The translations under genes were made by a program, and so were the position numbers. Below the pieces are notes generated by a model, which was not told where the DNA came from, did not search any database, and saw nothing but the letters and a program-made list of their open reading frames with translations. Below, in pieces: positions 1,592 through 63,457 of a DNA stretch of 64,000 bases (position 1 is its first letter; every line of letters starts with the position of its first letter). Origin of the DNA: Desulfobacterales bacterium (GTDB lineage Bacteria; Desulfobacterota; Desulfobacteria; Desulfobacterales; JAAELO01); assembly GCA_024226555.1 (NCBI GenBank), contig JAAELO010000457.1:70701-134700 (forward strand), given 5' to 3'.

Positions 1592-1720
1592 GGGAATCTA
1601 ATAACTGACTTTTGTATTAATTACTGCGTTACAAGAAAAAAATAACTGTTGTAAAATCGGCTCGTTACATTTTTCTCAAACCTTGTAGTTAAACCAAAAT
1701 TCTAATTATTAAAGATTCCA
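1592..1720. mobile_element. ~130-bp MITE copy, TATA target duplication
   Basis: GGGAATCTAATAA...TTATTAAAGATTCCA flanked by TATA on both sides; interior matches the other copies. Confidence 0.8.
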
Positions 1721-1765
1721 TATAGGGGAATCCCTGAATATGATTCAAAAAAATGTGAGGATAAA

Positions 1766-2215
1766 ATGTTTAAATACGATAAAAATGAAGCTATTCAATC
1801 ATTAATTAAAAGTAATTTCTTTCTATTCAATGATTGTCTTGTAAAACAGGATGATAAAGAAAATGCTGTTGCACACTTTAAACTTGATGATATTGAAAAT
1901 ATTACATCCACTAAAAAAGTTTGTAGCTGGGCTATTTTCTTTTTTCTACTCTCAGCTTTATTCTCCTCATTAGCATATTTTGTTGTTCAGTCAGAGATAT
2001 GGACTATTATAAACTACGTCCTTGGAGGACTTTCATTCTCAATTTTCCTTCTGTCTTTTATTGAAAATGTATTGGTTCTTACTGTTGCCGGTGAAATCAT
2101 AAAATACGAAATCCGTGAAGATACTAGTGAATTAAAAGGTTTTGTTGTAAGCGTACGTCAGTACAAAAACTCATATAAAAAACATGAGAACAAAGTTGTG
2201 TATAGAAATTTGTAA
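1766..2215 (+). CDS. Hypothetical membrane protein (2 TM)
   Basis: 149-aa ORF, GAGG RBS, two hydrophobic helices. Confidence 0.65.
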   Translation: MFKYDKNEAIQSLIKSNFFLFNDCLVKQDDKENAVAHFKLDDIENITSTKKVCSWAIFFFLLSALFSSLAYFVVQSEIWTIINYVLGGLSFSIFLLSFIENVLVLTVAGEIIKYEIREDTSELKGFVVSVRQYKNSYKKHENKVVYRNL

Positions 2216-2231
2216 AATAACTACTATTTAA

Positions 2232-2361
2232 GGGAATCTCTAATAATTAGAATTTTTGATGAAAAACAAGGCATAATAAAAAACAACGGGTTGATTTTAC
2301 TACAGTTTTATTTTTGTTATAACGCTGTGTTTCGCAAAAAGATCAGTTATTAGAGATTCCC
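2232..2361. mobile_element. 130-bp MITE copy, TTAA target duplication
   Basis: Perfect 15-bp TIR GGGAATCTCTAATAA/TTATTAGAGATTCCC; near-identical (inverted) to 25512-25641. Confidence 0.9.
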
Positions 2362-2630
2362 TTAAGTAGGTATGAACCTTCATTTTTAATGATAAGAAAG
2401 TAAAATGCCAGGGCTTCTTCCAGCTTCTCCATTTTAATAGAGGATATTTTTCTTATCACTACGTCAAGGGATAGCAAGGGGACTTGCCTACGCTGCAAAA
2501 AGCATTTCAGCTCTCTATATTCTCATTTCTAAAAATATATGTTATTATATTTGCACACAGATATCTTTAAAGCTACTTGATAATTAGTAATATTTTTTCT
2601 TTTAATTAATCAACAGGAAAGAGGTTTTAA

Positions 2631-3038
2631 ATGGCATTTATAAACTGGAATGATAGTCTAAGTGTTGGTGTTGAAAAATTTGATAAGGAACATAAGGTTC
2701 TTGTTGGGATAATAAATGATCTTAGTGATGCCATGAAACAGGGTAAAGGGAAAGAGGTTATTGGTAAAACTTTGGATGGCTTGATTGATTATACAATGAA
2801 TCATTTCAAAAACGAAGAGATGTATTTTAAAAAATTCAATTATCCTGATAAAGCAGATCATATAAAAGAACATCTGAGCTTTGTTGAGAAAGTTTCAGAG
2901 TTCAAAGAGGGGTTTGAAACTGGAAAACTATCCCTTTCTATTGAAGTTATGAATTTTCTCAAAGATTGGTTACAAAAACATATTAATACAACAGATAAAA
3001 AATATACTGCTTTTTTCAATGAAAAGGGTTTAAATTAA
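2631..3038 (+). CDS. Bacteriohemerythrin
   Basis: W-x3-LSVG..FD.EHK, HFKNEE, HIKEH, WLQKHI...D iron-ligand motifs. Confidence 0.95.
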   Translation: MAFINWNDSLSVGVEKFDKEHKVLVGIINDLSDAMKQGKGKEVIGKTLDGLIDYTMNHFKNEEMYFKKFNYPDKADHIKEHLSFVEKVSEFKEGFETGKLSLSIEVMNFLKDWLQKHINTTDKKYTAFFNEKGLN

Positions 3039-3330
3039 GGTTAAGTTTGGAGGGTGCGTTAGATTTATCGCACCTATACAGGCATCAATCTTGTGAAAAT
3101 TATTTGGAGCAGATGTTATAACAATGCTTCCCTTTTTTGTTTCTGGTCTTAATTTAAGACTTGTTGTTGCAATAACTCTTAAAACATTTGCTGAAGCGAG
3201 ATGTTCCTGTGCAACAGATATATCGCCACGTCCCCACAGTATACCTACTTCATACATTAAAGGTTGTATTATTTCCAGATAGTATGATTCAATATCATGA
3301 CTTTCATTTATTGATTCATTTGAATTGTTA
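3030..3330 (-). pseudogene. Fragment of a cobalamin (B12)-binding domain protein
   Basis: Frame reads IESYYLEIIQPLMYEVGILWGRGDISVAQEHLAS...IVITSAPNNFH, the B12-binding_2 cap motif. No proper start and truncated C-terminus. Confidence 0.65.
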
Positions 3331-3346
3331 GAGGGTTCACTTTATA

Positions 3347-4401: not shown

Positions 4402-5610
4402 ATGAAAAAAAATATACTGATTGCCTTTTTAATCTTTGTTAGTTGTAGTAACGGATCTGGAAAGAAAGAGGAAAAGAGAATAGAGTATAACGATATATCA
4501 AAAATCAGCAAAAAAGTATTATTAATAAAAAAAATTGAGAACAAGGGTGTTTTAAAACTCAATGAGCTTTCTGATGGGAAACAGGTTATAACAATAACTA
4601 ACAGTAGTAATGGAATTGTTTTAAATCAGGTATTTTCAAAAGATACAATAGTACATTCATTTAATTTTACAGGTTCATTGGATTTACTGAACTTTGAAGC
4701 TTTAGATACATTAAATCGTGTAAAATATTACTGGGATATAAGTAAAAACAAACTCTATTTCAGATCTTTAAATAACCAGAATGGTAAAGAATACAGATCT
4801 GAAAATATAGAACAAAGTCCGGCTCTAAAATCATTTATAAAGAAAGAAAATTTTAGTGTTATCAGAAAAGTTACAAATCCTCCTGAGTTGAAATATTTTC
4901 TGAAAAATGAAGAGAGTGTTTTTCAATCAAATTCTATTAAAGCATCTGTTTCTGGTACAGTTTTTGATGTACCAGGTAAAGAGAGTTGTCTGATGTTAGT
5001 TGATCAAAATGATTATGATGGTGATGGATATAAAGATGCACTCCTTGAAAACGCTGTGGCCTGTGGTGGTAATTGCTGCCCAAATAGTTTTTTTATAGTG
5101 ACTTACAAAGGTGATGGTAACTTTAAGGTTTTAGATAGTTTCAATTCTTCCTGGGAGGGTGCTGACCTTCAGAAGTGGAAAGGCAGATGGTCTATTGTTA
5201 CAAAATTTGTAAATGCAGGCAGCAACACTTCAGATTATTATGAATCAAGATCAAGGCATATGCTGATAAATGGAGAAACTGTTCTGGTGGAATTTGATGA
5301 AAAGAAGGAGATTGAAGCTCTTATGAACATCAGAGCTAAAGAGTTTGATATTAGTAAAGTAAATCAATCAAAAAATTACAGATTTGATCTTGATGGAGAT
5401 GGAGAAAAAGAGTTAATGCAGTGCAAGCTCTGGAATCGATGGGGCGTAGTCCAGTGTGAAATAAAAAGAAAAGAAAAGATAATTCTTAAAAATATTGGTG
5501 GAAAAAGGGTTGGAGTTTTAAAAAGAAAAACCAATGGTATGCATGATATAGTTAGTAATCATGAAGAAATATATAAGTGGAACGGATCAGAATACAAAAA
5601 GGAGAAGTGA
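4402..5610 (+). CDS. Hypothetical lipoprotein with DxDGDG (FG-GAP-like) motifs
   Basis: Signal peptide with FVSC lipobox; DYDGDGYKD and DLDGDGEKE motifs. Confidence 0.7.
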   Translation: MKKNILIAFLIFVSCSNGSGKKEEKRIEYNDISKISKKVLLIKKIENKGVLKLNELSDGKQVITITNSSNGIVLNQVFSKDTIVHSFNFTGSLDLLNFEALDTLNRVKYYWDISKNKLYFRSLNNQNGKEYRSENIEQSPALKSFIKKENFSVIRKVTNPPELKYFLKNEESVFQSNSIKASVSGTVFDVPGKESCLMLVDQNDYDGDGYKDALLENAVACGGNCCPNSFFIVTYKGDGNFKVLDSFNSSWEGADLQKWKGRWSIVTKFVNAGSNTSDYYESRSRHMLINGETVLVEFDEKKEIEALMNIRAKEFDISKVNQSKNYRFDLDGDGEKELMQCKLWNRWGVVQCEIKRKEKIILKNIGGKRVGVLKRKTNGMHDIVSNHEEIYKWNGSEYKKEK

Positions 5611-5950: not shown

Positions 5951-6109
5951 GGAATCTCTAATAACTGCCTATAAAACAAAACAACTGAGTATGTTTCGAA
6001 AAAAAAACTGTAAAATCGTCTCGTTATTTTTTTTTAAGCAGAGACTTTATAAAACTAAAAGCTTTTATAAACGCGATATTTCAATAAAAATTCTAATTAT
6101 TAGAGGTCC
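5951..6109. mobile_element. MITE copy with internal insert
   Basis: GGAATCTCTAATAACTG...TTCTAATTATTAGAGGTCC; contains extra TTTATAAAACTAAAAGCTTTTATAAA palindrome. Confidence 0.75.
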
Positions 6110-11936: not shown

Positions 11937-12075
11937 GAGAATTTTTAATAATTAGAATTTTTTATGAAATAAGGTTTATAAAAACTTTCAGTTTTGTAAA
12001 ACCTCTGTATGACAAAAAATGACAAAAAGTTTTTTTGCATATATTTGGGAAAATGATCAGTTATTAGAGATTCCC
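11937..12075. mobile_element. Degenerate MITE copy with palindromic insert
   Basis: GAGAATTTTTAATAATTAGAA...CAGTTATTAGAGATTCCC. Confidence 0.7.
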
Positions 12076-13920: not shown

Positions 13921-14050
13921 GGGAACCTCTAAAAAATAGAAATTTTATTGAAATACAAGGATGAGAAATAAATAACGAAGCGATTTTACAACAGTTTTTT
14001 ATTTCGAATAACACAGTATTTCGGTCAAAGATCAGTTTTTAGAGGTTCTC
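13921..14050. mobile_element. 130-bp MITE copy, TACA target duplication
   Basis: GGGAACCTCTAAAAA...TTTTTAGAGGTTCTC flanked by the non-palindromic direct repeat TACA. Confidence 0.88.
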
Positions 14051-20349: not shown

Positions 20350-25235
<4,886 letters not shown>

Positions 25236-25267
25236 TTTCTGGATATATTTTTTAAAATTATTTTTAG

Positions 25268-25293
25268 AGGGAGGGCTTGTGTCCTCCCTTTTT
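25268..25293 (+). terminator. Terminator after icd
   Basis: AGGGAGG...CCTCCCT followed by T-tract. Confidence 0.7.
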
Positions 25294-25324
25294 AAGTTTT
25301 GTCTACTTTTCTATAGATGGGTAA

Positions 25325-25818
25325 ATGAATAAAATATTAACTATCATATTATTAACAATTTTTTTAACAAGTTGCTCAACTGTTTTTTCTAAAAAAGAAG
25401 TTTTAAAACTTTAAGTGAAGCCACTTCTTTTATTCAAAAATCTCTAAAAGACCGTAATTATACAGCATTGGATAGTTCGCTTTTAGTAAAAGAGAATTCG
25501 AATTATCTTTAGGGAATCTCTAATAACTGATCTTTTTACGAAACACAGCGTTATAACAAAAATAAAACTGTAGTAAAATCAACCCGTTGTTTTTTGTTAT
25601 GCCTTGTTTTTCATCAAAAAATCTAATTATTAGAGGTTCCCTTTATATACTCTGATTTAGCTAAATATAATCTTGTTGAAATATACAAAGATGAAGTTTT
25701 CAACGAAGAATTTAAACGGCATACGTTAGGTGGACATTTGGGTAAATTAGGTTGTATTCATATTGATTTCTTAAAAAAAGAGAAGTGGCATATTGAAAAG
25801 ATTTGGAGGTGTAAATAA
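25325..25818 (+). pseudogene. Lipoprotein gene disrupted by a MITE and frameshifts
   Basis: MNKILTIILLTIFLTSC lipobox; reading continues after a frameshift up to the MITE; a 58-codon open frame after the MITE ends ...WHIEKIWRCK*. Confidence 0.6.
25512..25641. mobile_element. 130-bp MITE copy, TTTA target duplication
   Basis: GGGAATCTCTAATAA...TTATTAGAGGTTCCC flanked by the direct repeat TTTA. Confidence 0.9.
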
Positions 25819-26063
25819 ACTAATCAAATCAGACGTTCTTAATATGCTGTTTTATTCAATGTTCATTTAATCAATGTTAAGAATTTTTCATCCCATCCTT
25901 TATTCTTTATCCTGACCCTTGATCCTCAATAAAGAATATCTTCTTTTGTAAATATTAAACAATAAATAGCTTTTTATATTAATAATCTGAATTGGTTCAA
26001 AAAAAGCAGCTATTAGAAACCCATTAATACCAGTCGGTTAGTATTTTAAAACAAATTTTGATC

Positions 26064-26108
26064 TTGACAAAACTACTAAAAATGAGCTAACGTTTACGTT
26101 AACGTAAG
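26064..26108 (+). promoter_or_regulatory. icmF promoter with LiuR-type operator
   Basis: TTGACA -35; palindrome TTACGTTAACGTAA (26094-26107) next to the -10 region. Confidence 0.7.
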
Positions 26109-26161
26109 TGTGGTTTTGCCGTTTTTTCTTATCAATTTTTTGCATATTTCCAGGAGTCGAT

Positions 26162-29100
26162 ATGAGTTTTGATACAGAAGTCTACAGTCCCTCAAATAAC
26201 GTAAGAATAGTTACAGCAACAGCCCTTTTTGACGGTCATGACGCATCAATCAGCATTATGAGAAGAATGCTTATGGATACTGGCGCTGAAGTTATTCATC
26301 TTGGACATAACCGATCTGTTAAAGATGTTGTGGATGCAGCAATAGATGAAGATGCTCAGGGCATTGGTATCTCAAGTTATCAGGGTGGGCATGTTGAGTA
26401 TTTTAAATATATTATTGACTTGCTGAAAGAGAGAGATTCTTCCCATATAAAGGTTTTTGGTGGTGGTGGTGGTGTTATTGTTCAGGAAGAGATTGATGAG
26501 CTCGAAGAGTATGGGGTTACAAAGATTTATTCTCCTCAGGATGGGACTGAGATGGGATTACAGGGAATGATCAATCATATGGTTGAAAACATGGATTTTC
26601 CTGTTACAACCAGTGATGAGTTTGACTTTGATACACTTTCTCCTGAAAATCCTTCATCCATTGCAAGATTAATAACTATCACTGAACAGGTTAAAGCCGG
26701 AAAGTTTGGTGATTACAATAATCTCCTTTCAAAAATAAAAGATAAAATAGGTGAGAATAATACACCTGTTATTGGAATAACCGGAACTGGTGGTGCTGGA
26801 AAATCTTCACTTACCGATGAACTTATTTTAAGAATTATGCGTGACCTCGATGATGTGAGGGTTGGTATAATAAGTTGTGATCCATCCAGACGAAAAACAG
26901 GTGGCGCTCTTCTTGGTGACAGAATAAGAATGAATGCTATAGATAATGACAGAATCTATATGAGAAGCCTTGCAATCAGAAGGTCAAACTCTGAGGTTCC
27001 TGAAGCTCTTCCAGAAGCAATACTTGCAGCAAAATCAGCTGGTTTTGATATAATAATAGCTGAAACAGCTGGAATTGGTCAGGGAGATTCCTCGATTTTC
27101 GATATAGTTGATATTTCTATTTATGTTATGACAAGTGAATTTGGAGCAGCTTCACAACTTGAAAAGATAGATATGCTCGATCTTGCTGATCTTATAGTAA
27201 TAAATAAAATGGAAAAAAGAGGAAGTGATGACGCAATCCGTGATGTCAGAAAACAGGTTCAGCGTAACAGAAAAGCCTTTGACAAGTCCCCTGATGAGAT
27301 GCCCGTATTTGGAACAATAGCTTCCAAATTTAATGATGATGGTGTGACTGCTTTATATTATGGACTTCTGGATGTTATTAATGAAAAAAAGGGCATCTCT
27401 TTTAAATCTCAATACGAAAGACCTGATACTAAAATATCCTCTTCAAAAACTATTATTATTCCACCAGACAGAGTACGCTATCTTGCTGAAATTGCTAAAA
27501 CTGTAAGAGATTACCATAAAGAGACTGACAAGCAGTCAGATGCATTGAGAAAAAAGTGGCACCTTGAAGAGTCTTTGGATATTCTTGATTCAAATGATTT
27601 GATTGCAAAGCTTAAAGAAGAAGTAGTAAAAGCGGAAAAAGCTATAGATAACGAAACAAAGGAACTTGTTGATTCATGGATTGATATTGCAGAAAAATAT
27701 TCAAAGGATGAGTTGGTATATCAGGTGCGTGATAAAGAGATAAGAATTCCTCTTAATTCAGAATCACTATCACATACTAAAATTTCCAAGATATCACTAC
27801 CTCAATTCAAAGATCCTGGTGAGATATATAAATTCAGACGCAAAGAGAATCTACCAGGTTTTTTTCCTTTTACAGCAGGGGTTTTTCCACTTAAAAGAGT
27901 TGATGAAGATCCAACAAGGATGTTTGCGGGACAAGGAGACCCCTTCTTTACAAATAACAGATTCAAAATGTTGTCTGCAAATTTTCCATCGAAAAGACTC
28001 TCCACAGCTTTTGATGCTGTCACGCTTTTTGGGTGTGATCCTGATTTAAGACCAGACATATACGGAAAGGTTGGAACTTCAGGCGTAAGCGTTTGCACAC
28101 TGGATGATGTTAAAGTTTTATACAGTGGTTTTGATCTTTGTGTACCAACAACATCTGTATCTATGACTATAAATGGGCCTGCTCCAATGATGCTCGCTAT
28201 GTTTATCAATACAGCAATAGATCAGATGATAGAAAAATTTGAAGAAGAAAATAATCGTAAACCTACTCCTGATGAATATCTTGAACTAAGAAATTGCGCT
28301 ATGTCCAGTGTGCGTGGAACTGTTCAGGCTGACATTCTTAAGGAAGATCAGGGACAGAATTCATGCATCTTCTCGGTTGAATTTGCACTAAAAATGATGG
28401 GTGATATTCAGGAATTTTTTGTAGAGAACAATGTTAGAAATTTCTATTCAGTATCCATATCAGGTTATCATATTGCTGAAGCAGGTGCTAATCCTATATC
28501 ACAGACTGCTTTTACTCTTGCCAATGGTTTTACATATGTTGAGTACTATCTGTCGAGGGGACTTGATCTGGATAGCTTCGCACCAAATCTGTCATTCTTT
28601 TTTTCATGTGGTATGGACCCTGAATATACAGTAATAGGAAGAGTTGCCAGAAGAATATGGGCTGTTGCACTTCGAAATATGTACAAAGGATCTGAAAGAT
28701 CACAGAAGCTGAAATATCATACACAGACTTCAGGGAGGTCTCTGCATAGCCAGGAAGTTCAGTTTAATGATATCAGGACAACAATACAGGCATTGACTGC
28801 TATCTATGATAATTGCAACAGCCTACACACAAATGCTTATGATGAAGCGATTACTACTCCTAGTGAAGAGTCTGTGAGACGTGCTCTTGCAATTCAGCTT
28901 ATTATTAATAATGAAGCAGGTCTTGCCAAAAATGAGAACATGAATCAGGGTAGTTTTATTGTTGAAGAGTTAACAGATCTTGTTGAAGAAGCGATATTGA
29001 AGGAATTTGACAGTATGACCGATAGAGGTGGTGTTCTTGGTTCAATGGAGACTGGTTATCAGAGAAGTAAAATCCAGGATGAATCCATGCACTATGAGAT

Positions 29101-29419
29101 GCTTAAACACTCCGGGGAATATCCATTAATTGGAGTTAATACCTTTATTAATGAAAATCCTGATGCAGCAGAGGAGATTGCAGCACTTGAACTTGCAAGA
29201 GCCACTGAAGATGAAAAAGAGTCTCAGTTAAAAAGACTTAAAGAGTTCCATGATAAAAACAGTGATACCAGTGATGAAGCACTTAAAAAACTTCAAAAGG
29301 CTGCTTTAAATGGTGAAAATATTTTTGCAGAACTTATGGAAACTGTCAGACATTGCAGTCTTGAGCAGATTACGAATGCTCTATATGAAGTGGGGGGCAA
29401 ATTCCGCCGAACAATGTAA
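26162..29419 (+). CDS. icmF: Fused isobutyryl-CoA mutase/GTPase IcmF
   Basis: FDGHDA B12 domain, GTGGAGKSS MeaB GTPase, mutase barrel ([41 protein letters not shown]). ATG 26162 follows AGGAG. Confidence 0.95.
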
Positions 29420-29450
29420 CCAATTGTCTTTTGAGCGAAATTCTTTGTTA

Positions 29451-29712: not shown

Positions 29713-29715
29713 TAT

Positions 29716-30659: not shown

Positions 30660-30680
30660 AAAATCCCCTGTTTAATATGT

Positions 30681-34670: not shown

Positions 34671-35791
34671 TGCTTGATACAAAACTTTTCGGAAACAAAA
34701 TGAAGGAGATGGGGTTTAACTTTTATAGTGGCGTCCCATGTTCATTTCTTAAATATCTGATTAATTATGCAATTAATGACTGTGATTATGTTATGGCTGC
34801 AAACGAAGGTGATGCTGTTGCAATTAGTGCTGGAGCATACCTTGCAGGAAAAAAATCAGTTGTTCTTATGCAGAACTCAGGCTTAACAAACGCAACCTCA
34901 CCTTTGACCTCTTTAAACTACTCTTTCAAAATACCAGTTCTGGGTTTTGTTAGTTTAAGGGGAGAGCCTGGAATATCGGATGAACCACAGCATGAACTAA
35001 TGGGCCCAATAACAACAGGCATGTTAGAACTTATGGAGGTTAAGTGGGAATATCTTGCAGATAATATTGATGAGGCGCAAAAGCAGCTTGAAAGAGCAGA
35101 TAAGTTTATTGCTGAAGGTCAGACTTTCTTTTTTGTTGTTAAAAAAGGGACTTTATCTGAAGAAGTATTAAAGGAAGTACCACGAAATATAGTTGAAAAT
35201 AAAAATCTGATACAAAAATCAAATGATGATGAAATTCCCACAAGAAATAGTGCTCTTGAAAAGATAAATGAATTGAAAGAGGATGCCGTTTGTCTTGCAA
35301 CAACCGGAAAAACCGGAAGAGAGCTTTATGAAGTAGAAGATAGTGACAGCAATCTTTATATGGTCGGTTCAATGGGGACAATTAGTTCCCTTGCTCTTGG
35401 TATATCACTTTCCCATGAAAAGAAAGTGATTGCCATAGATGGTGATGGGTCATTAATGATGAGAATGGGCTCTCTTGCAACAAATGCGAGTTATAATCCA
35501 AAAAATATGCTTCATATCCTTCTTGATAATAATTGTCACGATTCAACAGGAGGTCAGTTTACATGCTCTCATAATGTTGACTTTGTGAATGTTGCAGCTT
35601 CCTGTGGTTATGTAAATGCATTTTATGCACACAGCGTTGATGAACTCGGAAAATATATGGAGCAATGGCAGAAAGAGCCAAATCTTACATTTATTCAGTT
35701 AAAGACAGCAAAGGGTTCTAAAAAAGATCTTGGTCGTCCAAAAATTAAACCCTATGAAGTTAAAGACAGATTAATGAAATTTATTAATTAA
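34670..35791 (+). CDS. aepY: Phosphonopyruvate decarboxylase
   Basis: GVPCSFL, ANEGDA, MQNSG, DEPQH, TTGKTGREL, VGSMG, IDGDG. Confidence 0.95.
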   Translation: MLDTKLFGNKMKEMGFNFYSGVPCSFLKYLINYAINDCDYVMAANEGDAVAISAGAYLAGKKSVVLMQNSGLTNATSPLTSLNYSFKIPVLGFVSLRGEPGISDEPQHELMGPITTGMLELMEVKWEYLADNIDEAQKQLERADKFIAEGQTFFFVVKKGTLSEEVLKEVPRNIVENKNLIQKSNDDEIPTRNSALEKINELKEDAVCLATTGKTGRELYEVEDSDSNLYMVGSMGTISSLALGISLSHEKKVIAIDGDGSLMMRMGSLATNASYNPKNMLHILLDNNCHDSTGGQFTCSHNVDFVNVAASCGYVNAFYAHSVDELGKYMEQWQKEPNLTFIQLKTAKGSKKDLGRPKIKPYEVKDRLMKFIN

Positions 35792-35825
35792 GATTTGATA
35801 CAAATATAGTGATTCAGGAGAAGAT

Positions 35826-37658: not shown

Positions 37659-37678
37659 ATAAAAAGGGGAAGTTTTTA

Positions 37679-38671
37679 ATGTTTAATGAGTACAAGTACC
37701 AGTGTAAGGATGATTCTGTTTTATTAGATCCTTTCAAGAAATTTGTTGTAACACCATTGATGAAGTTTATGCCTTACCGCATTCCGGCAAATACAATTAC
37801 AATAATTTCAAACATGTTTATTTACTACGCCCTTTATCTATCATTTATCCATGATGGTGCTCCAGCTAATTATTTAATTATATCACTTCTGATATTAACA
37901 TATGTTGTTGGGGATCATTTTGATGGGATGCAGGCGAGAAGAACCGGAACCGGCTCACCCCTGGGGGAGTTTTGTGACCACTATCTTGATATTTTTAATA
38001 ACGGAATAGTACTTATAATTGTATTTAATCTGTTTGGAATTACTAATTTATATATAGTGGTATCAGCTTTTTTCATATCCTATCTTTCACATTCATCTAT
38101 AATCTATGAACAGTTTGCTACTAAATGGTTAATTTTTGACAAAATTGGTTCATTAGAGGGGCTTTTCTTAACACTGTGTTTACTGGTTGCAAGTTTTTTT
38201 AAGCCAGTACGGGAATTGCTAACAAGTAATGTTGTTTCAAATCTTACTTTAATTGAAGTTATCCTTCTTGTTACCTATATTCTTGGCATAGGAACTATGT
38301 TTACAGTTTCTAAACGTGTCGGAAGATTCTCACTTAAGTTTGTAATCTATGTGCTTTTTATGGCACTGTTATCAATATATAGTATCAAATTTCTAAGTTT
38401 CAACTACTCAGTACTTTTATTAACTCTTTATAATGCAATTTATATCGGAAATTTAATGAAAGCGCATTTAATTGACAGCAAAGAAAGATATGCTGACATT
38501 GTTGTGCCGGCTCTTATTCTGATTCACTGGGTAATTGGTGGAAATGCAGCTGAATTTTACATCTATGCTGTTTTATATATGATTCTTTATCTTGTTTTTA
38601 TAACAATAACTATATCATATCCACTTAGACAATTCTGGTTCTGGATCAATCCCTCAAAAAAAGAATCTTAA
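37679..38671 (+). CDS. CDP-alcohol phosphotransferase (CPT/EPT-like)
   Basis: DHFDGMQARRTGTGSPLGEFCDHYLD motif, PANTIT, multiple TM segments. Confidence 0.9.
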   Translation: MFNEYKYQCKDDSVLLDPFKKFVVTPLMKFMPYRIPANTITIISNMFIYYALYLSFIHDGAPANYLIISLLILTYVVGDHFDGMQARRTGTGSPLGEFCDHYLDIFNNGIVLIIVFNLFGITNLYIVVSAFFISYLSHSSIIYEQFATKWLIFDKIGSLEGLFLTLCLLVASFFKPVRELLTSNVVSNLTLIEVILLVTYILGIGTMFTVSKRVGRFSLKFVIYVLFMALLSIYSIKFLSFNYSVLLLTLYNAIYIGNLMKAHLIDSKERYADIVVPALILIHWVIGGNAAEFYIYAVLYMILYLVFITITISYPLRQFWFWINPSKKES

Positions 38672-38706
38672 AAAATATATAAAAACATTTCTTTATAGTC
38701 TTAATG

Positions 38707-38741
38707 AAAGAGCTACATTATTTATGTAGCTCTTTTTTTTA
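38707..38741 (+). terminator. Terminator of the phosphonate operon
   Basis: AAGAGCTACAT-TATTT-ATGTAGCTCTT plus long T-tract. Confidence 0.85.
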
Positions 38742-38911
38742 TAACCCTCCATAAGTTTCCTATAGTTTTAATTTCATTTTTAATTTTATCGTTTCAGGCC
38801 TTTGGCAATAAACTTTATGGTTTAGATAACGAAATTGAATAAAAATGTTGTTGATAAGCTCTATTATAGCTTGAGGTTTTGAAGATTATTAAAGATTCCA
38901 AATAAAAAAAC

Positions 38912-38978
38912 TTGACATAATGTTATACCTACACTATCTATGTGTCATAAATACACTATACTGGTGTAATTAAAAAAC
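38912..38978 (+). promoter_or_regulatory. Promoter with tandem NrtR-like operators
   Basis: TTGACA followed by ATGT-N7-ACAC, GTGT-N7-ACAC and a degenerate third copy at ~22-bp spacing. Confidence 0.6.
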
Positions 38979-39016
38979 AGTTTAACTTTTGAGATAGTTA
39001 ATGAAATGGTATTATT

Positions 39017-39490
39017 ATGAAATCGATTAAATACATAAAAGGGGATGCTACAAGTCCACAAACTAAGGGAATTAAAATAATTTGCCATATTTGTAATGAC
39101 CTTGGAGGTTGGGGAAAGGGCTTTGTGCTTGCTATCTCAAAACGCTGGGAAGAACCTGAAAAAGACTACAGAAAATGGCACAGGGAAAGATCAAAAAATG
39201 ATTTTGAATTGGGTAATGTTCGTTTAATAAAAGTAGATAAATATATTTATATTGCAAATATGATCGGACAAAGAGGTATGAAAACAGGTAGTAATGGACC
39301 TCCAATAAGATATGAAGCAGTTCAATCCTGTTTGGAATTTGTAAGTAATAAAGCAATTGAACTAAACGCATCAGTCCATATGCCAAGAATTGGTTGTGGT
39401 TTAGCTGGTGGCAAATGGAACAAAATTGAACCTGTTATTGAAGATACGTTATTAAAGAAAAATGTATCCGTGTATATTTATGATTATTAA
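39017..39490 (+). CDS. Macrodomain protein (ADP-ribose processing)
   Basis: GDAT, HICNDLGGWGKGF, HMPRIGCGLAGGKW. Confidence 0.92.
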   Translation: MKSIKYIKGDATSPQTKGIKIICHICNDLGGWGKGFVLAISKRWEEPEKDYRKWHRERSKNDFELGNVRLIKVDKYIYIANMIGQRGMKTGSNGPPIRYEAVQSCLEFVSNKAIELNASVHMPRIGCGLAGGKWNKIEPVIEDTLLKKNVSVYIYDY

Positions 39491-39510
39491 ATGATACAAA
39501 AAATTAAAAA

Positions 39511-40152
39511 TTGAAAGTTAAGAAAATGAATTTAGAAACAGAAAAATATATAAAACAGAAAACAATCTGGCCGCAGGAAGGACAATGTGTTTTAGCCCAG
39601 TATGATGAAAAAACGATAATTGTATATCAGGCTTATAGGCCATCTATTGGTAATGCAGCAGTAAAAAATCAAAGTTTTGGAGAGGGTGGATTTAGTTTCT
39701 CAAGAATGAGTTGGATTAAAACCAATTTTCTTTGGATGATGTATAGATCAGGTTGGGGGACAAAAGATGGTCAGGAAGTAATTCTTGCCATTCGTTTGAA
39801 AAGAGATTTTTTTGATGAGATTCTCTTAAATGCCTTCCCTTCATCAAATAAAAACAGGTTGGCAAAAGATGAATGGGATAAAATAATCTCAGGTTCCGAT
39901 GTAAGGCTACAATGGGACCCGGATCATGCTCCAAATGGAGACAAAGAAGAAAGAAGAGCAGTTCAGTTAGGTTTAAGAAACGGTTTTCTTAAACCCTTTG
40001 AAGGGGATGGAATTTTAGAAATAACAGATATCTCAGAATTTGTTAATGGACAGAGAAAAATTTTGGAAGAAGGGTTATTGGAAGAATTGATTACTCCGAA
40101 AGAAAGAGTTTACCCAGTAAGTACAGAACAAATGAAAGCTCTTAGAATGTAA
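39511..40152 (+). CDS. DUF4291 family protein
   Basis: AQYD...VYQAY, RMSWIKTNFLWMMYRSGWG.K.GQE, VRLQWDPDH, RAVQLGLR. Start may be ATG 39526. Confidence 0.88.
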   Translation: MKVKKMNLETEKYIKQKTIWPQEGQCVLAQYDEKTIIVYQAYRPSIGNAAVKNQSFGEGGFSFSRMSWIKTNFLWMMYRSGWGTKDGQEVILAIRLKRDFFDEILLNAFPSSNKNRLAKDEWDKIISGSDVRLQWDPDHAPNGDKEERRAVQLGLRNGFLKPFEGDGILEITDISEFVNGQRKILEEGLLEELITPKERVYPVSTEQMKALRM

Positions 40153-40174
40153 AGATAATGAGGAATAAAAAAAA

Positions 40175-40714
40175 ATGCAATCAACAAGAAAAATATCAAA
40201 ATATTTTAGCTATATACTAAGACACCATCCTGAAGCGATAGGTATAACTTTAGATGACGAAGGATGGGCACAAATTGATGAACTTATTGAAAAAACAAAA
40301 AAATTCAAACTAACTATGGAGATGATTCAAACCGTAGTTGATACGAACGATAAGAAAAGGTTTACACTAAGTTCAGATAAGAGAAGAATAAAAGCAAATC
40401 AGGGGCATTCAATTGAAGTTGACCTTGCCCTTGAACCAATAGATCCACCGGATTTTCTGCTCCATGGAACAGCTCAAAAATCTATTGAATCTATTATGGA
40501 TAAAGGAATTTTAAAAGGACAAAGACATCATGTCCATTTATCAGAAACTAAAGAAACTGCTTTTGCAGTTGGCCAAAGATATGGAAAACCTGTTCTTTTA
40601 AAAATTGATTCTAATAAAATGGCAGGTGATGGTTTTAAATTCTACAAATCTTTAAATGGAGTCTGGTTGGTAGAGGGGGTTCCACCACGCTATATTGAGA
40701 TTATAACGAACTAA
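40175..40714 (+). CDS. kptA: RNA 2'-phosphotransferase (KptA/Tpt1)
   Basis: SYILRH.P, DKKRF, IKANQGHS, LHGT, RHHVHLS, NGVWL. Confidence 0.95.
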   Translation: MQSTRKISKYFSYILRHHPEAIGITLDDEGWAQIDELIEKTKKFKLTMEMIQTVVDTNDKKRFTLSSDKRRIKANQGHSIEVDLALEPIDPPDFLLHGTAQKSIESIMDKGILKGQRHHVHLSETKETAFAVGQRYGKPVLLKIDSNKMAGDGFKFYKSLNGVWLVEGVPPRYIEIITN

Positions 40715-40727
40715 GAAGAGAACTACT

Positions 40728-40758
40728 AATCTCCTTTTCATTCATTGAAAGGGAGATT
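40728..40758. terminator. Hairpin after kptA
   Basis: AATCTCCTTTT...AAAGGGAGATT. Confidence 0.55.
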
Positions 40759-41015
40759 CATAAATACTTAACTATTAATTGATGGCCATTTTTTGTTCTT
40801 TATATAATAAATTGATTTTGAATCAAAATGAATATTATAAAGAGAAATTATGAGAACTTTTATTGTTAAACAGTTTCTATCCACAAAAAGTTTTGCGTTC
40901 AATATTACTGGGGACAATAGTCTCCTTAGTTTACAAGGTTTTTTTTCTTATGCAGATATTTTAGAAAACTGAAAACTCATGGTTTTTATTTTACTTAAAT
41001 TCAAATTGTTTGAGT

Positions 41016-41471
41016 TTACCTATTTATTTTGTGAATCATTGCTGTTTCATCGCAATCAGGAAATTTTACACAAGTTATACAATCCTGCCATATCTTCAAC
41101 GGAAGCTCTGACTTATCAACAATAGTGAAATTAAACTGCTTAAAAAAATCTGGTTGATATGTAAGAGTAAAAAGGTCTGATATATCATATTTTTTTGCTT
41201 CTTCAATTAGAGCATCTACAATGATTGAACCTATTCCCTCGTTATGAAATTTACGCAAAACTGCAAGTGATCTTATTTCAGCAAGATTCTTCCAACAAAA
41301 TTGTAGAGCGCCAAATCCTGCAACTTCTCCATCTATTTCATATATGGTAAAATCCCTGATATGATCATAAAGTTGACTTAATGGTCTTGGAACCATTAGG
41401 TCATCATTACCAAAACCTGTTAATGTTTTATGTATTATTTTTATGTCACTCATGCATGCTTTTCTTATCAT
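41016..41471 (-). CDS. GNAT N-acetyltransferase (short ArgA-type N-acetylglutamate synthase-like)
   Basis: LAEIRSLAV, LFTLTY, LPLKIWQDC..C.KFP.CDE.A. Confidence 0.88.
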   Translation of the reverse strand: MIRKACMSDIKIIHKTLTGFGNDDLMVPRPLSQLYDHIRDFTIYEIDGEVAGFGALQFCWKNLAEIRSLAVLRKFHNEGIGSIIVDALIEEAKKYDISDLFTLTYQPDFFKQFNFTIVDKSELPLKIWQDCITCVKFPDCDETAMIHKINR

Positions 41472-41502
41472 TTTTTTTACCTTTTCAAAATAATCATATT
41501 AA

Positions 41503-41556
41503 GGGAATCTCTAATAACTGTAGTTACAATCAAAATATTTGTTATTTGAGGTTCCT
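41503..41556. mobile_element. Internally deleted MITE
   Basis: GGGAATCTCTAATAAC...GTTATTTGAGGTTCCT, only ~54 bp. Confidence 0.6.
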
Positions 41557-41646
41557 TTGAATTGGTGATAATATGGATTTTTTTAATAAAATGCAACCTC
41601 TATAATATGATAGGGAATCTTTAATTCTTTTAATCGAACTACATAA

Positions 41647-41774
41647 GGGAAGCTCTAATAACCTCTCTTTTGGCGAAATACATTGTTATTTCAAAAAAAA
41701 CTGTAATAAAATCGGCTCGTTATTTTTTTAAATGCCTTGTATTTCATCTAAAATTCTAATTATTAGAGGTTACC
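41647..41774. mobile_element. MITE copy
   Basis: Near-identical to 31639-31767 and to the reverse of 63329-63457. Confidence 0.88.
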
Positions 41775-41783
41775 TATAGGTAT

Positions 41784-43724
41784 TTATAGTGATGGCTCTT
41801 TACCTTTTTTAAATAAAGCTGAAACAGATCTCTCACTTTCATCTCTTTTCCCTGTATCAGGATCAATATGAACATTTTTTGTGTTATCAGGAATATCAAA
41901 ATAGTTAATAGATTGGTTTTCAAATGTTTTGTTCATATAATCTATCCAAATTGGCAAAGCTGCTCTGGCACCTGTTTCACCTTTTCCAAGTGTAGTGTTG
42001 TTATCATTACCAACCCAGACACCAACAGTAGTTTCTGGTGAAAAACCTACAAATAATGCATCTATATAATTATCTGTGGTACCTGTTTTTCCTGCAACAG
42101 GCCTGCTTAAAAAACTGGCTTTTTTTGCTGTCCCCTCTTTAACAACCCCTTCAAGCATATTGCTTATAATTGCTGCACCAGATCTTGACATAACAATCTC
42201 TTTTATTACTCTTTTTCGGAAGATAATTTTACCGTTTTTATCAATAACCTTTTCTATAGGAAATGGGGTATTTTTCTGACCCATATTTGAAAAAACAGAA
42301 TATGTTGAAGTGAGGTTTATAAGAGTAACTTCAGATGTTCCAAGTGCAAGAGAAAGGTTTTGCCTCAATGTATTTTTAATACCAAGTTTGTTACCGAAAG
42401 CTGATACAGAATTTGTCCCCAATTTATCGATTAATCGTATAGCTGGAATATTTTTTGATAGAGCAAGCGCTTTTCTCATTGTTATTTCACCAAGAAAAGT
42501 TTTAGAAAAGTTTTCAGGCCTCCATATTTTTGATCCGGTTTTAAAAACTATTGGAGAATCAAGTAGTATATTATTTTGAGAAAATCCCTGCTCAATAGCA
42601 TAAGCATATACTATTGGTTTAAATGCTGATCCAGGTTGTCTCTTAGCTATAGTTGCTCTGTTAAAAGCACTTTTCATATAGTTTAGACCACCAATCATAG
42701 ATATAATCGCTCCATTTTTATTGTTAAGAGCTATAAGTGCACATTCAGGATCTGGCTTTGATATACCATTTCTTTTCATCCTGATTTTTAATCTCTTCAT
42801 ATGCTTTAGTGCAGAATTTTCAGCTTCCTTTTGAAAACCCATATTTATGGTTGTGTAAATGGATAAACCACCTTTGTATAGTATAGATGGACCTAATTCT
42901 TTTTCCATTTTATTTCGAATAAACTCTACAAAATGTTGAGCAATTTGCTTTTTATTAGTTTCACTTAGTTTAAGTTTAGTTTTTATAGCTTTATCATAGG
43001 TAACTCTATTAATTTTATTGGTTTTCAGTAGTACTTTTAAAACAATATTTCTTCTTTTTACAGCCAGTTTTAAATTATTTAAAGGAGAATATCTTGATGG
43101 AGATCGTGGTAGAGCTGCAAGCATTGCACTTTCAGATAGATCACAATCAGTTACAGTTTTACCAAAATATGTTTTTGATGCTGAGTCTACACCATAGGCA
43201 CCACTACCTAAATAGATCTGGTTCAGATAGAGAGCAAGAATTTCATCTTTTGTGTATCTTCTCTCAATTTGTAGAGCTACAATAGCTTCTTTTATTTTTC
43301 TAACAATTGTTTTTTTTGATGTAAAAAAAAGGGTTTTTGCAAGTTGTTGGGTTATAGTACTCGCTCCTTCAACAAATTCTCCAGCAATAATATCTTTAAC
43401 AATAGCTCTAAATATTCCTTTGATGTCCACACCGATATGACTATAGAAGTTTCTGTCTTCTGTCATTACTATTGCATTTTTAAGGTGAGCAGGTATATCT
43501 GTAATACTAACCTGTCTCCTTCTTTCAATATAAAATTCAGTTAACAATTGGTTGTCTGATGTGTAGACTTTGGTTACTTCAGAGGGTTTAAATGAATTTA
43601 ATTCTCTAATTTCAGGTAAATCACTTGTGAATGTATAAAAAAAACCAGTGAGAATGCCACTGAATGGCGCTGCCATGAAAACTATAAATATAAGTATTTT
43701 ATGATTTTTTAAAAAATTAATCAC
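41784..43724 (-). CDS. Class A penicillin-binding protein (PBP1A family)
   Basis: EDRNF..H.G, GASTITQQ, RKIKE, SAFK, SKN, KTGT. Confidence 0.95.
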   Translation of the reverse strand: MINFLKNHKILIFIVFMAAPFSGILTGFFYTFTSDLPEIRELNSFKPSEVTKVYTSDNQLLTEFYIERRRQVSITDIPAHLKNAIVMTEDRNFYSHIGVDIKGIFRAIVKDIIAGEFVEGASTITQQLAKTLFFTSKKTIVRKIKEAIVALQIERRYTKDEILALYLNQIYLGSGAYGVDSASKTYFGKTVTDCDLSESAMLAALPRSPSRYSPLNNLKLAVKRRNIVLKVLLKTNKINRVTYDKAIKTKLKLSETNKKQIAQHFVEFIRNKMEKELGPSILYKGGLSIYTTINMGFQKEAENSALKHMKRLKIRMKRNGISKPDPECALIALNNKNGAIISMIGGLNYMKSAFNRATIAKRQPGSAFKPIVYAYAIEQGFSQNNILLDSPIVFKTGSKIWRPENFSKTFLGEITMRKALALSKNIPAIRLIDKLGTNSVSAFGNKLGIKNTLRQNLSLALGTSEVTLINLTSTYSVFSNMGQKNTPFPIEKVIDKNGKIIFRKRVIKEIVMSRSGAAIISNMLEGVVKEGTAKKASFLSRPVAGKTGTTDNYIDALFVGFSPETTVGVWVGNDNNTTLGKGETGARAALPIWIDYMNKTFENQSINYFDIPDNTKNVHIDPDTGKRDESERSVSALFKKGKEPSL

Positions 43725-51323: not shown

Positions 51324-51398
51324 TGGTACCCCCGGCAAGAATCGAACTTGCGCTCAAGGATTAGGAATCCTATGCTCTATCCACTGAGCTACGGGGGC
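51324..51398 (-). tRNA. tRNA-Arg (anticodon CCT)
   Basis: Cloverleaf GCCCCCG...TAGCTCAGTGGATAGAGC...TT-CCT-AA...GTTCGATT...CGGGGGT-A-CCA. Confidence 0.95.
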
Positions 51399-56033: not shown

Positions 56034-56220
56034 ATGAATCTCTAATTAATTAGAAATTTTTGATGAAATTCAGATTATTAAAAAATTTAGTTTTATAAAA
56101 CCTCTGCATGAAAAAAGAACGAGATGGTTCGGTTATAAAACGCTTTAATTTATAAACAATATAACAGTTTTTTTAGGATATAACGAAGTATTTCGGAAAA
56201 AGAGCTGTTATTAGATTTCC
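56034..56220. mobile_element. Degenerate MITE with two palindromic inserts
   Basis: GAATCTCTAATTAATTAGAAA...CTGTTATTAGATTTCC. Confidence 0.65.
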
Positions 56221-56303
56221 TTAAGATTCTTGTAGCCCGAAAGTGTTATGATATGTTATTAACCTTTTGACAATGTTGTTAACAAAACCCTAAAGAGGTC
56301 TAT

Positions 56304-61549: not shown

Positions 61550-61798
61550 TGGATTAACCTCCGCTTTTCAAGGAATTCGCTAAATTATATGAACCTTAAC
61601 TTTTTTAGGTATAAATTGTAAACTGATCAGCAAAAATAATGTAAAATTTAATCAATCTTAAATAACATCTAAATTTGATTCTTCCGTGAGGAATAGAAAC
61701 AATTTGACTTTAGTAGGAAGAAATTACTGATTTGGAATGAAATAATCAGTTTTTATAAATTAACATTTTGTATTTATTTTGTAAAGAAAAGATAATAT

Positions 61799-61855
61799 GG
61801 AACTTCTAATAATTAGAATTTTGATTGGAATATAAGGATGAGAAAAAATAACGAA
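61799..61855. mobile_element. Truncated MITE (one end)
   Basis: GGAACTTCTAATAATTAGAATTTTG...AAGGATGAGAAAAAATAACGA matches the start of the 13921 copy. Confidence 0.65.
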
Positions 61856-62512
61856 CCCTTCTGGTAAATTCCTTACTATCTGTCATAAGCGTTTTCAGTT
61901 CGCTTCTTCAATGTAATCAGTTTTGTATGTCCGGTAGAGCGAAGCGAAAGCAGTTTTGATTCGACCTTGTTCAAATGTAATCGAATATTCCGATCAGGGA
62001 TCTCATTAAATATCAAAAACATGACAAAAGAAAAAAAACTATTGTAAACTAATCTATAACTCCTCTGTTGGATTCACCACTGATTGTCATTTCTGAGATG
62101 ATTTGGATTATTTTTATTTCCAAATTTGAGTCAGGAATCCATTAAGGCTTTACAATTAATGAAATGCTATCATCAAATCGGAAACTTACCTTCAAAAAAT
62201 CTTAGCAAACAAAAGGAGAGACCCTCTGCGAGAGATAAATCTAAAATAAAAATGTTTATATTTTTATGCGCCTTTTTTGAAAAATTTGATAAACAGATTA
62301 TTAAAAAATGATTGTTAATGAAAAGCAAATTTTCAAAAAAAACCATATCCAAATGAATATGTTAAAAATAAATTAATTTTTCTCTTGATATTTGTTTAAT
62401 GTTGCGGTTATTGTTTTACTGGTTGTATTAATTGTATTCGGCGAGCCAAAATGGAAGCGGTCACTTCCAAATTGACTCTGAACAGAAATCTTCTCGAACA
62501 AGGAGAAAACTA

Positions 62513-62704
62513 ATGCCTGTAATCTTTTTTACAGAAACCTATCCATTCCGTCAACGCCTCTTTCACACGCCGGGGCAGTTTTTTCACTCAAACACTATTA
62601 AATCAAGACAAAAAACACACTTGGAAACTGTTACAAATGCACCTCTGGTTTGTAAATCTGCCCTTTTTTCTGGTCTGTTTCTACTTGATTGTTGGGTGAA
62701 TTGA
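62513..62704 (+). CDS. Putative 63-aa leader ORF within the structured region
   Basis: AGGAG RBS at 62501-62505 and ATG at 62513; no recognisable domain. Confidence 0.35.
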   Translation: MPVIFFTETYPFRQRLFHTPGQFFHSNTIKSRQKTHLETVTNAPLVCKSALFSGLFLLDCWVN

Positions 62705-62916
62705 ACTGGTTCTACATGAATCTGCTTTAGTTTTTTTGCTATGGGGAAACTTAAGCTTTTTATGTCTACACAAAACAGTCATTTTTTTTGTGTAAATAAA
62801 AATTATTTCCAGGATTTTCTAAGAAATAAATAGTAACAGAAGATTTTCTTCAGTTCAGAACCAGTTTTGCGCGTGAAAGAGAGTACACTTAAACTACATA
62901 TGAAAGAGGCGTTGAC
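62550..62916 (+). ncRNA. Candidate large structured RNA (Y-shaped, two long arms)
   Basis: 16-bp perfect inverted repeat 62550-62565/62901-62916 enclosing nested inverted repeats in two arms; strand inferred from the flanking promoter and terminator. Confidence 0.5.
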
Positions 62917-62955
62917 AGGTATGGGAGAAATTGCCCCCTCCCATACCTTTTTTTT
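62917..62955 (+). terminator. Rho-independent terminator
   Basis: AGGTATGGGAG...CTCCCATACCT followed by T-tract. Confidence 0.85.
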
Positions 62956-63070
62956 CTAATAATTGTTTCTTTGTAGGAGTTTAACTACTTACCGCTTTAT
63001 TTTAAATTAATGATACTTGTAGGCTACTTGCCTGCTCCCGTTATTTGCTAAGAATAGGAGACAACTTGAA

Positions 63071-63340
63071 ATGTATGTTTATACAAAACCTGACCTGACT
63101 GCCAATATAAGTTCATTCATAAGCTGTATGAGAGTATTCGGAGGAAGTAATTACCAGTGGTATGTTGGCCTTACAAATGACCCTAAACACAGCTTTCTGA
63201 ATATACACAATGTGGATATTCAGGAAATTGGATGGATTCTTAGCGAAAGATCGAAAGTCCACCAACTTAACTTTATTAAAAGCTACCTCACTCAAATCGA
63301 CTGCCAAAACAATCCTGAACTGGATATAGGGAACCTCTAA
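63071..63340 (+). pseudogene. Paralog of 5611-5919, truncated at the C-terminus by a MITE
   Basis: WYVGLTNDPKH...WILS; the last residues GNL* are read from the MITE TIR. Confidence 0.7.
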
Positions 63341-63457
63341 TAATTAAAATTTTGGATAAAATACAAGGCATTTCAAAAAATAACGAGCCGATTTTATTAC
63401 AGATCTTTTTGGAAATAACAATGTATTTCGCCAAAAGAGAGGTTATTAGAGATTCCC
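63329..63457. mobile_element. MITE copy with non-matching flanks
   Basis: GGGAACCTCTAATAA...TTATTAGAGATTCCC; left flank TATA, right flank ACTA. Confidence 0.9.

Follow-up and report, generated by a model that had tools for sequence, protein, structure and literature searches.

What is the palindromic repeat of about 130 bp that recurs along a 64,000-nucleotide stretch of a Desulfobacterales genome, what moves it, and how did many of its copies come to carry further hairpins at the same few positions? The stretch, called the window below, spans positions 70701-134700 of contig C457 in an assembly of 7.69 Mb (34% GC, 905 contigs, 97.95% complete by marker genes), whose source is the sole member of its family among the genomes compared. 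The original prediction, made from the window's letters, described a MITE family (miniature inverted-repeat transposable elements) with 4-bp target duplications and at least 12 copies. This study found that the MITE occupies about 1,290 loci in the genome; it is likely moved in trans by an IS5-family DDE transposase, and its hairpin inserts were likely gained later, at fixed positions. The probability of this reading as a whole is put at roughly 80%. The MITE is a known kind of element; its load and layered architecture are unusual, and what is new is the load, the likely modular gain at four sites and an insert that targets the terminal inverted repeat (TIR).

Genome-wide load, target duplication and age

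The MITE is a non-coding element of 129-130 bp bounded by 15-bp TIRs, GGGAA(T/C)CTCTAATAA, which have 21 matches in the window at up to two mismatches. Across the genome the terminal repeat has 2,581 matches at the same tolerance, 1,233 of them exact, and a terminal-repeat pattern reversed as a control gave 3 matches against 2,007. There are 893 convergent TIR pairs; 419 form a peak at 128-131 bp, with extra peaks near 160 and 190 bp. A hidden Markov model (HMM) built from 150 core copies recovered 1,226 merged loci and none in the reversed genome, and core and long-form HMMs together recovered 1,286 loci covering 173,629 bp, or 2.26% of the assembly. At about 1,290 loci, the family is far larger than the 12 or more copies first counted in the window. 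End-pattern matches number at most 8 in any of 40 order-level and 400 phylum-level genomes, against 1,415-2,007 here. The element is short, non-coding, multicopy and mainly intergenic, with TIRs, a confirmed target duplication and a stable hairpin, the features of a type II MITE as defined in the accessible part of PMC10969869. The highest bacterial ERIC count in that part of the review is 711, in Photorhabdus. No copy-number record is claimed here, because several thousand MITEs are described across 17 cyanobacterial genomes in the accessible part of PMC3184786. Neither this element nor any MITE from a Desulfobacter-type genome was found described in the literature within reach, which excluded ISfinder, subscription papers and the supplements on Geobacter multicopy sequences; a blastn search of plasmids gave short chance matches only.

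Direct 4-bp flanks were found in 288 of the 457 copies of 124-134 bp, compared with a mean of 31 and a maximum of 46 after shuffling, and in 58/138, 16/57 and 15/41 copies of the longer length classes. No other direct-repeat length from 1 to 9 bp is enriched. The argument that these are true duplications, first drawn from the non-palindromic TACA and TTTA in the window, extends to the genome, where 261 of 384 duplications are non-palindromic. The proposed T-N-N-A target is preferred and is no strict rule: among copies with perfect ends, 77% have T at -4 and 77% have A at -1. When the element and one 4-mer were removed, the resulting junction matched a paralogous empty site elsewhere in the genome for 42 of 366 copies. 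Among 20 empty sites hand-picked for clarity, a 4-bp duplication fitted best in 16, and 0, 3, 5 and 6 bp fitted best once each. Public run X3, a different sample holding a clearly diverged strain, provided a further empty site: an X3 contig bridges locus L258 of contig C380 from 4655 to 4789, skipping 133 bases that correspond to a 129-bp copy (4661-4789) plus TTAA, with 244 bases on the shorter side. A second X3 skip, of 134 bases at a 130-bp copy, may derive from a paralog, and the other two copies of the L258 stretch show no empty-site joint among the X3 joints listed. Thus, the paralogous sites and the X3 strain, which at one site lacks exactly the element and 4 bp, show the single 4-mer expected of an empty site. 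In the first step of the proposed mechanism, copies enter AT-rich 4-mers, mostly T-N-N-A, and duplicate the target, as the flanks display.

With the age of a copy taken as its divergence from the nearest copy, the suggested recent spread is borne out: on the scored columns, 102 of the 654 aligned copies are identical to a partner, and fully identical copies form groups of up to 13. The duplication is kept, from the youngest to the oldest class, in 78/94, 139/188, 93/160, 40/111 and 21/92 copies. On contigs longer than 5 kb, 27 of 1,177 loci lie mostly inside open reading frames (ORFs). By spacer type, and with no correction for length, copies occupy 16% (tandem), 29% (divergent) and 24% (convergent). 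One orientation prevails in tandem spacers by 369:207, from 21:15 among the youngest copies to 81:35 among the oldest (58% to 70%), and on the 50 contigs with callable skew the MITE shows no replication-direction bias.

The transcript strand of the favoured orientation folds better than the other (-40.6 against -33.5 kcal/mol for the copy at 2232), and hairpin stability reaches z scores of -5.4 to -6.9 in five folds. Pair counts were taken from the consensus fold, because the fold based on a pairwise-stacked alignment recovered the TIR stem alone. In a set of 194 non-redundant copies, 87.5% of the inner stem is paired (shuffled maximum 84.3%), with 539 G.U and 62 C.A cells. The stem shows 228 double changes against a shuffled maximum of 144, counts that ignore relatedness, and sliding the partner by one column gives nearly as many (up to 216), though with 50-59% pairing. 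A stable hairpin with double changes above shuffled levels is what the proposed folding and covariation check returned, subject to that control. We read the orientation and pairing patterns as probable post-insertion selection on a single-stranded, probably RNA, structure. In the third step, the copies that last lie mainly between genes, and the orientation whose transcript strand forms the better G.U-rich hairpin gains share with age, presumably through selection. Inside the 2232 copy neither a promoter-like nor a terminator-like site was found. Genome-wide, stop codons often fall at or within the element edge (38 at -1 to +1 and 24 at -12 to -19); copies thus provide gene ends or lie against them.

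The probable mobilising transposase

As predicted, no transposase family was found among the 36 window proteins scanned (the window has 51 ORFs of at least 100 aa). The terminal repeat was also found at the ends of none of 38 transposase loci in this genome, whose small contigs have a very diverse content of insertion sequences (ISs): 37 DDE_Tnp_1, 21 Y1, 7 IS110 and 7 IS91-type matches, several of the IS91-type genes being preceded by an integrase-like gene. The original prediction had pointed to an IS5/IS1182-type DDE transposase acting in trans, and the IS1182 part of it was dropped, the DUF772/DDE_Tnp_1_6 loci of this genome, on contigs C234, C75 and C394, showing other ends or none. TIR pairs 450-3,600 bp apart, read by eye as possible transposase carriers, enclose ordinary genes between separate copies, and a weak match on contig C578 is no transposase relic. 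Among DUF772 genes of five TIR-bearing genomes of the same phylum, one broken gene lies near a TIR-like match and no complete element was found.

A scan of public genomes for the end with its preferred flank returned at least 76 loci. Short elements of 93-177 bp account for at least 34 of the matches listed; each has a 4-bp direct repeat and an interior unlike that of the MITE, and they come from deltaproteobacteria, methanotrophs, Planctomycetes, Nitrospirae and Firmicutes. The rate of 34 among at least 76 is biased, because the pattern fixed three flank letters and the ranking favoured matches. The same loci include a 1,279-bp element that a delta proteobacterium has in two copies, identical at 1,278 of 1,279 bases, with ends GGGAACCTCTAATAA/GGGTTCCTCTAAAAA, TTAA and TTTA duplications and a 338-codon frame. 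Its product is an IS5 transposase (NF033581, 290 bits against a cut-off of 140), and its best plasmid relatives, at 55-56%, carry an IS5 annotation. Within the class, 6 of 401 genomes have homologs at 60-70% identity. A like end was found at all nine IS5 homolog loci, and four of the six two-ended elements have an exact 4-bp duplication (TAAA, TTAT, TTCA, TTAA). These autonomous same-end IS5 elements of other genomes measure 1.27-1.29 kb, one IS end agrees with the MITE over 22 of 24 bases, and a cognate IS5 would show the end GGGAAYCTCTAATAA. The IS5 subgroup is presumably the right one by ISfinder criteria. An autonomous IS sharing the TIR was thus found in other genomes and not in this assembly. 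The shared ends and 4-bp duplication lend support to a DDE transposase acting in trans, probably of the IS5 (NF033581) clade. In the second step of the mechanism, an NF033581-type IS5 transposase of about 335-340 aa would bind the GGGAAYCTCT(A/G)A(T/A)AA ends.

Across phyla, this IS5 end flanks many palindromic interiors that are unrelated to one another (L042-L117, L018-L037), among them REP-like GTCA(C/T)TCCCGC hairpins and CCCCTCTCCC hairpins. Many unnamed palindromic repeats may be MITEs of one IS5 clade. One end-bounded unit with a TTAA duplication (L060:2504-3991) encloses a gene for a REP-associated tyrosine transposase (RAYT) with a DnaA-like tail; another (L067; 636 bp, minus strand from the match), also with a TTAA duplication, holds a short ORF that we take to resemble DUF559 endonucleases. 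Both units are possibly cargo or nested insertions.

Hairpin modules and the insert in the terminal repeat

Four positions of the core accept optional hairpin modules: M1 (net +33) after core base 38, M2 (+29) after base 65, M3a or M3b (+35 to about +50, mutually exclusive) after base 91, and M4 (about +29) after base 108. In the core fold none of these positions is paired. Modules are carried by 221 of 738 full-length copies (about 30%), in 26 states; in the window they are present in the copies at 5951, 11937, 29422, 31543 and 56034. Few module motifs lie away from profile matches (M1 13/187, M2 3/117, M3a 0/30, M3b 1/25, M4 11/67), and nearly all such contexts that were read proved to be decayed copies. 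Carriers make up 4 of the 102 youngest copies and 56 of the 92 oldest. On a poorly resolved core tree of module-free columns (fewer than 100; 654 of 738 copies, 84 having been dropped for length), M1 changes 80 times for 108 carriers (103 with shuffled labels) and M2 78 times for 87 (83 with shuffled labels). Within young subfamilies M2 is present in some copies of a sub-variant and absent from others, M1 and M2 appear in several sequence variants, and 8 cases have M1 at a second site that is seven bases off. Where a carrier has a near core neighbour (23/108 for M1, 22/87 for M2), polymorphic bases within 10 bases of the junction are host-type in 49 of 57 cells for M1 and 33 of 49 for M2. On contigs with callable skew there is no replication-strand bias of M1 (29:33), M3 or M4, and M2 stands at 20:37 (p 0.03, uncorrected). 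The simplest reading, and in our judgement a probable one, is repeated and precise gain of modules into resident copies from diverse donors, which may be due to a dedicated enzyme or to tight gene conversion. In the fourth step, modules of 29-50 bp (M1, M2, M3a/M3b and M4) would be added to the core hairpin at its four unpaired positions, where they take the place of 0-4 bases; the pattern is observed, and the direction is the conditional part.

A different insert, E, is a two-hairpin element of 75 bp found outside the window (for example at 4601-4675 of contig C822). It sits at GGGAAYCT^CTAATAA in either end of the MITE. Its canonical form has 52 copies, and about 7 further relatives have diverged, with both hairpins and the junctions preserved. 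Across 42 fully read copies E is nearly invariant and its hosts differ, with 11 outer 8-mers, of which some are heavily decayed, and 20 inner 12-mers; the left end has one CTT unit in 33 copies, two in 8 and three in 1. CT is present at both junctions and the second hairpin has a TTAG foot, a pattern kept in the diverged relatives. The flanks shared by the hosts are so short that E appears to have inserted site-specifically, and both E and the modules look gained after MITE insertion. By blastn, E was found in this genome at MITE ends only. A 14-base E pattern had E context at 0 of 80 loci in metagenome contigs, the E-filled-site pattern matched 9 places outside this genome among the 401 class genomes and was followed by E at none, and no convincing excision footprint (TIR plus CTT, E being gone) was seen among five loose matches. 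In the fifth step, E would enter one position of the terminal repeat, at either end, as the pattern indicates. For the last two steps the best guess, advanced tentatively, is a single-strand enzyme of the HUH type (Y1/RAYT) that the host encodes and that cuts at C|T; the absence of strand bias for E (5:7) and M1 gives no support to a lagging-strand HUH mechanism. It is possible, if not quite probable, that the MITE is a self-made landing platform for a further layer of non-coding mobile DNA, in which a separate enzyme precisely inserts hairpin elements of 30-75 bp into the loops and terminal repeat of resident copies.

Modules might instead be exchanged among copies through ordinary homologous recombination, or through short-patch gene conversion, with more than 1,000 templates and no dedicated enzyme. 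Fixed junctions, modules exclusive to the element and replaced bases unlike a clean insertion all fit such exchange, as do the positive association of module states (M1-M2 odds ratio 4.4), one subfamily-0 copy with M1 beside subfamily-1-type bases, and M2 flanks that are carrier-type in 14 of 49 cells. However, flanking polymorphisms only 4-8 bases from the junctions are mostly host-type, and the hosts of E share as little as 2-4 bases on the left and 7 on the right; flanks of 2-7 shared bases are too short for RecA-type exchange. This explanation is held to be doubtful, yet a contender. The opposite direction of change would start from a module-rich long form as the ancestor, with hairpins lost precisely and repeatedly to give the 129-bp core, which was then amplified. 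This would suit the module-rich old copies and module-poor young ones, and hairpins are prone to deletion. It is improbable all the same: a clean loss of M1 should leave AAGC where the core has AAGGC, which is also present in same-end elements of other genomes (both motifs in 3 of 68 end-reads), the module variants of young subfamilies outdo the cores in diversity with M1 at two sites, and an E that is nearly invariant in decayed hosts would go unexplained. Short-read assembly through a high-copy repeat could also produce mosaic modules as artefacts, and indeed 161 of 1,810 contig ends lie within the element and public contigs break at copies. Against this, host-specific bases lie within one k-mer of the junctions, carriers in young subfamilies mostly keep their duplication (6/7 and 13/15 scored) and module frequency follows age, so that an assembly origin is very improbable.

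E could alternatively be a non-autonomous derivative of an IS110-family recombinase system with a CT core that targets the terminal repeat of the MITE. Its single position with CT on both sides and the seven IS110 genes of the genome agree with this, and IS110-linked MITEs and repeat-targeting IS110 elements have been published (PMC12288879, accessible part). None of the seven IS110 loci, however, lies on a contig with E-like ends or gave a convincing guide-match pair. Runs of CTT that vary at one end are, to our knowledge, not a feature of IS110, and the derivation is regarded as rather unlikely. Least credible of all is that the MITE is an ERIC-like or IS1182-mobilised repeat and no IS5 MITE. 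Length, hairpin shape and AAGGC/AACGC motifs are alike, as the original prediction had remarked of ERIC, and the genome does have IS1182 transposases. The likeness to ERIC proved superficial: there is no match in 5,426 E. coli genomes, the duplication is 4 bp with no 2-bp excess, and ERIC has TA ends (PMC2229807, accessible part). The ends themselves are seen at 0 of the 38 transposase loci here and on IS5 elements elsewhere.

Several results weigh against the reading of an IS5-mobilised MITE with later, fixed-site gain. The cognate IS5 was not found in this genome by tblastn (the best hit, E 0.002, belonging to other families), by a family search (nothing over the cut-off) or by a clade HMM over six frames, and the IS5 link is built on ends shared with elements of other genomes. 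Just one empty site is clearly orthologous, and none is listed for the window's own copies; reads over window positions 24000-43000 have no empty-site joint among the joints listed (184 further joints). The duplication is absent from 169 of the 457 core copies, including 16 of the 94 youngest, and the missing duplications may reflect recombination or mis-assembly. Besides the poor resolution of the core tree, the slid-partner control and the carrier-type M2 flanks, M3b, M4 and E, which have few carriers, are no more clustered on the tree than shuffled labels. E has no replication-strand bias, and no Y1, IS110 or IS91 gene with E-like ends was found among the flanks read in this genome. The cognate IS5 may have dropped out of the assembly, which is in 905 contigs. 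From the shared ends, the 4-bp duplications elsewhere and the failed searches here, the MITE is best described as a putative type II IS5 MITE; its enzyme either is absent from the assembly or was lost recently.

Copies and neighbouring genes in the window

All 13 positions listed by the original prediction hold full, partial or decayed copies. Five have the exact duplications reported for them: an older core copy with TATA (1592-1720, minus strand; nhmmer E 3e-24, flanks read), a young subfamily-1 copy with TTAA (2232-2361, plus; nearest-neighbour distance 0, a single long hairpin with z -6.9), a core copy of middle age with the non-palindromic TACA (13921-14050, plus), a young subfamily-1 copy with the non-palindromic TTTA (25512-25641, minus), and a young subfamily-0 copy with TTAA (31639-31767, minus). 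The last is nested in the M2 hairpin of an older long copy with M3a (about 31577-31604) and M2 (31543-31858, minus). Position 31543 is therefore no separate partial copy; it is the left part of this longer copy, split by the 31639 insertion, and its flanks, once joined, match 113 uninterrupted copies (best 89% ungapped). Two core copies lack an exact duplication, one with flanks ATAA/TATA (41647-41774, minus) and a young one of subfamily 0 with flanks TATA/ACTA (63329-63457, plus), inside which the ORF at 63071-63340 terminates. The reported near-identical subfamilies were recovered, with identities over aligned parts of 96% for 2232 and 25512, 93% for 31639 and 63329, and 91-96% for 41647 and 63329.

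Other module carriers are an older long copy with M1 (about 6040-6073), a decayed end and no intact duplication (5951-6109, minus; long-form HMM E 5e-26, family D15), an older copy with M1 and an internal deletion between flanks TAAA/TTAA (11937-12075, plus), and an older long copy with M1 (about 56073-56105) and M2 (about 56130-56158) at 56034-56222 (plus; long-form HMM E 1e-32), which has TTAA on both sides if a shortened right end is accepted. Position 41503 is a 54-bp mini-copy of two terminal repeats flanking a short spacer (41503-41556, strand not given), and 61799-61860 (plus) is a left half-copy (core HMM positions 2-64, E 4e-9). The first list had missed a decayed long copy with M1 (29422-29614, minus; long-form HMM E 3e-16) and a weak decayed remnant (40941-41017, minus; long-form HMM E 4e-4). 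Lone terminal-repeat remnants, 15-mers with two mismatches on the minus strand, lie at 1084-1098, with no core HMM match, and at 38886-38900.

By protein scan the window encodes housekeeping, chemotaxis and phosphonate synthesis functions. A phosphonate biosynthesis cluster (33072-38671) has a PEP mutase fused to a nucleotidyltransferase-like domain, phosphonopyruvate decarboxylase, an aminoethylphosphonate transaminase fusion and a CDP-alcohol phosphatidyltransferase-like gene, and likely serves phosphonolipid or phosphonoglycan synthesis. With Rfam 15 at gathering score the MITE has no match, and the sole match in the window is a tRNA gene (51327-51398, minus strand). About 1.2 kb after the 61799 half-copy (61860-63070) has no long ORF and holds a GTAGAGCGAAGCGAAA motif, which resembles the repetitive extragenic palindrome (REP) beside RAYT genes on contigs C303 and C527. 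Y1 genes on contigs C385, C616, C813 and C395 have GGGGTCA or GTCCCC inverted ends with short tandem duplications, which are TIRYT-like (PMC6006769).

Significance and comparison with known systems

The MITE is likely a main driver of genome change in this lineage, because it makes up 2.3% of the genome, 16-29% of intergenic spacers contain it, and strains are still polymorphic for its presence. Its roughly 1,290 dated copies form a natural experiment in which duplication decay, orientation bias and module build-up can be followed with age. The fixed-site inserts are more unusual than the MITE itself. If the modules and E are enzyme-driven, they offer a testable system for how bacterial repeats come by inserts at fixed sites, and possibly a small site-specific insertion chemistry that is new. 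If the landing-platform interpretation is true, they would be among the smallest site-specific mobile elements known, parasite upon parasite, and would account for the fixed-site inserts long noted in repeats like ERIC. The shared IS5 end around unrelated interiors in many phyla would tie many unnamed palindromic repeats to one transposase clade.

With IS5-family ISs (NF033581) and type II MITEs, the MITE shares ends of 15-17 bp, a 4-bp AT-rich duplication and homology at the ends alone. It differs from them in having no ORF, about 1,290 copies, no cognate transposase found in the assembly and fixed-site inserts. Like ERIC/IRU of Enterobacteriaceae, it is an intergenic element of about 127-130 bp with a long hairpin; unlike ERIC, it has a 4-bp duplication in place of TA, an unrelated sequence and about 1,290 copies against 711. 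De Gregorio (2005) and Sharp (1997) are said to describe inserts at fixed sites inside ERICs only. Orientation effects of ERIC on transcripts have been reported (accessible parts of PMC10969869 and PMC3049150). Length classes arising from optional internal segments are known from Correia/NEMIS (107 and 155 bp), pneumococcal BOX modules and Geobacter Chunjie (178-235 bp), whose length classes and mutual nesting are covered in the accessible parts of PMC2229807, PMC3049150 and PMC10969869; by comparison the MITE has four independent sites, free combinations, signs of gain into resident copies and a terminal-repeat insert.

For E, the closest likenesses lie with single-strand and site-specific systems. 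IS4321/IS5075 target Tn21 repeats, and together with MITEPpu9 (IS110 family) they share with E the site-specific entry into the inverted repeat of another element and the existence of non-autonomous passengers. E differs from them in its size of 75 bp, its lack of sub-terminal inverted repeats and the absence of a partner gene among those found. The site-specific and passenger features of IS110 are described in the accessible part of PMC12288879. REP/TnpA-REP (RAYT) and IS200/IS605 HUH systems resemble E in the TTAG-footed second hairpin and the CT at both junctions, REP-type HUH enzymes acting on short hairpins with a 5' tetranucleotide and cleaving at C|T on either side (PMC8266576, accessible part). 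Compared with these systems, E and the modules are confined to the MITE, show no strand bias and have no linked Y1 gene among those found.

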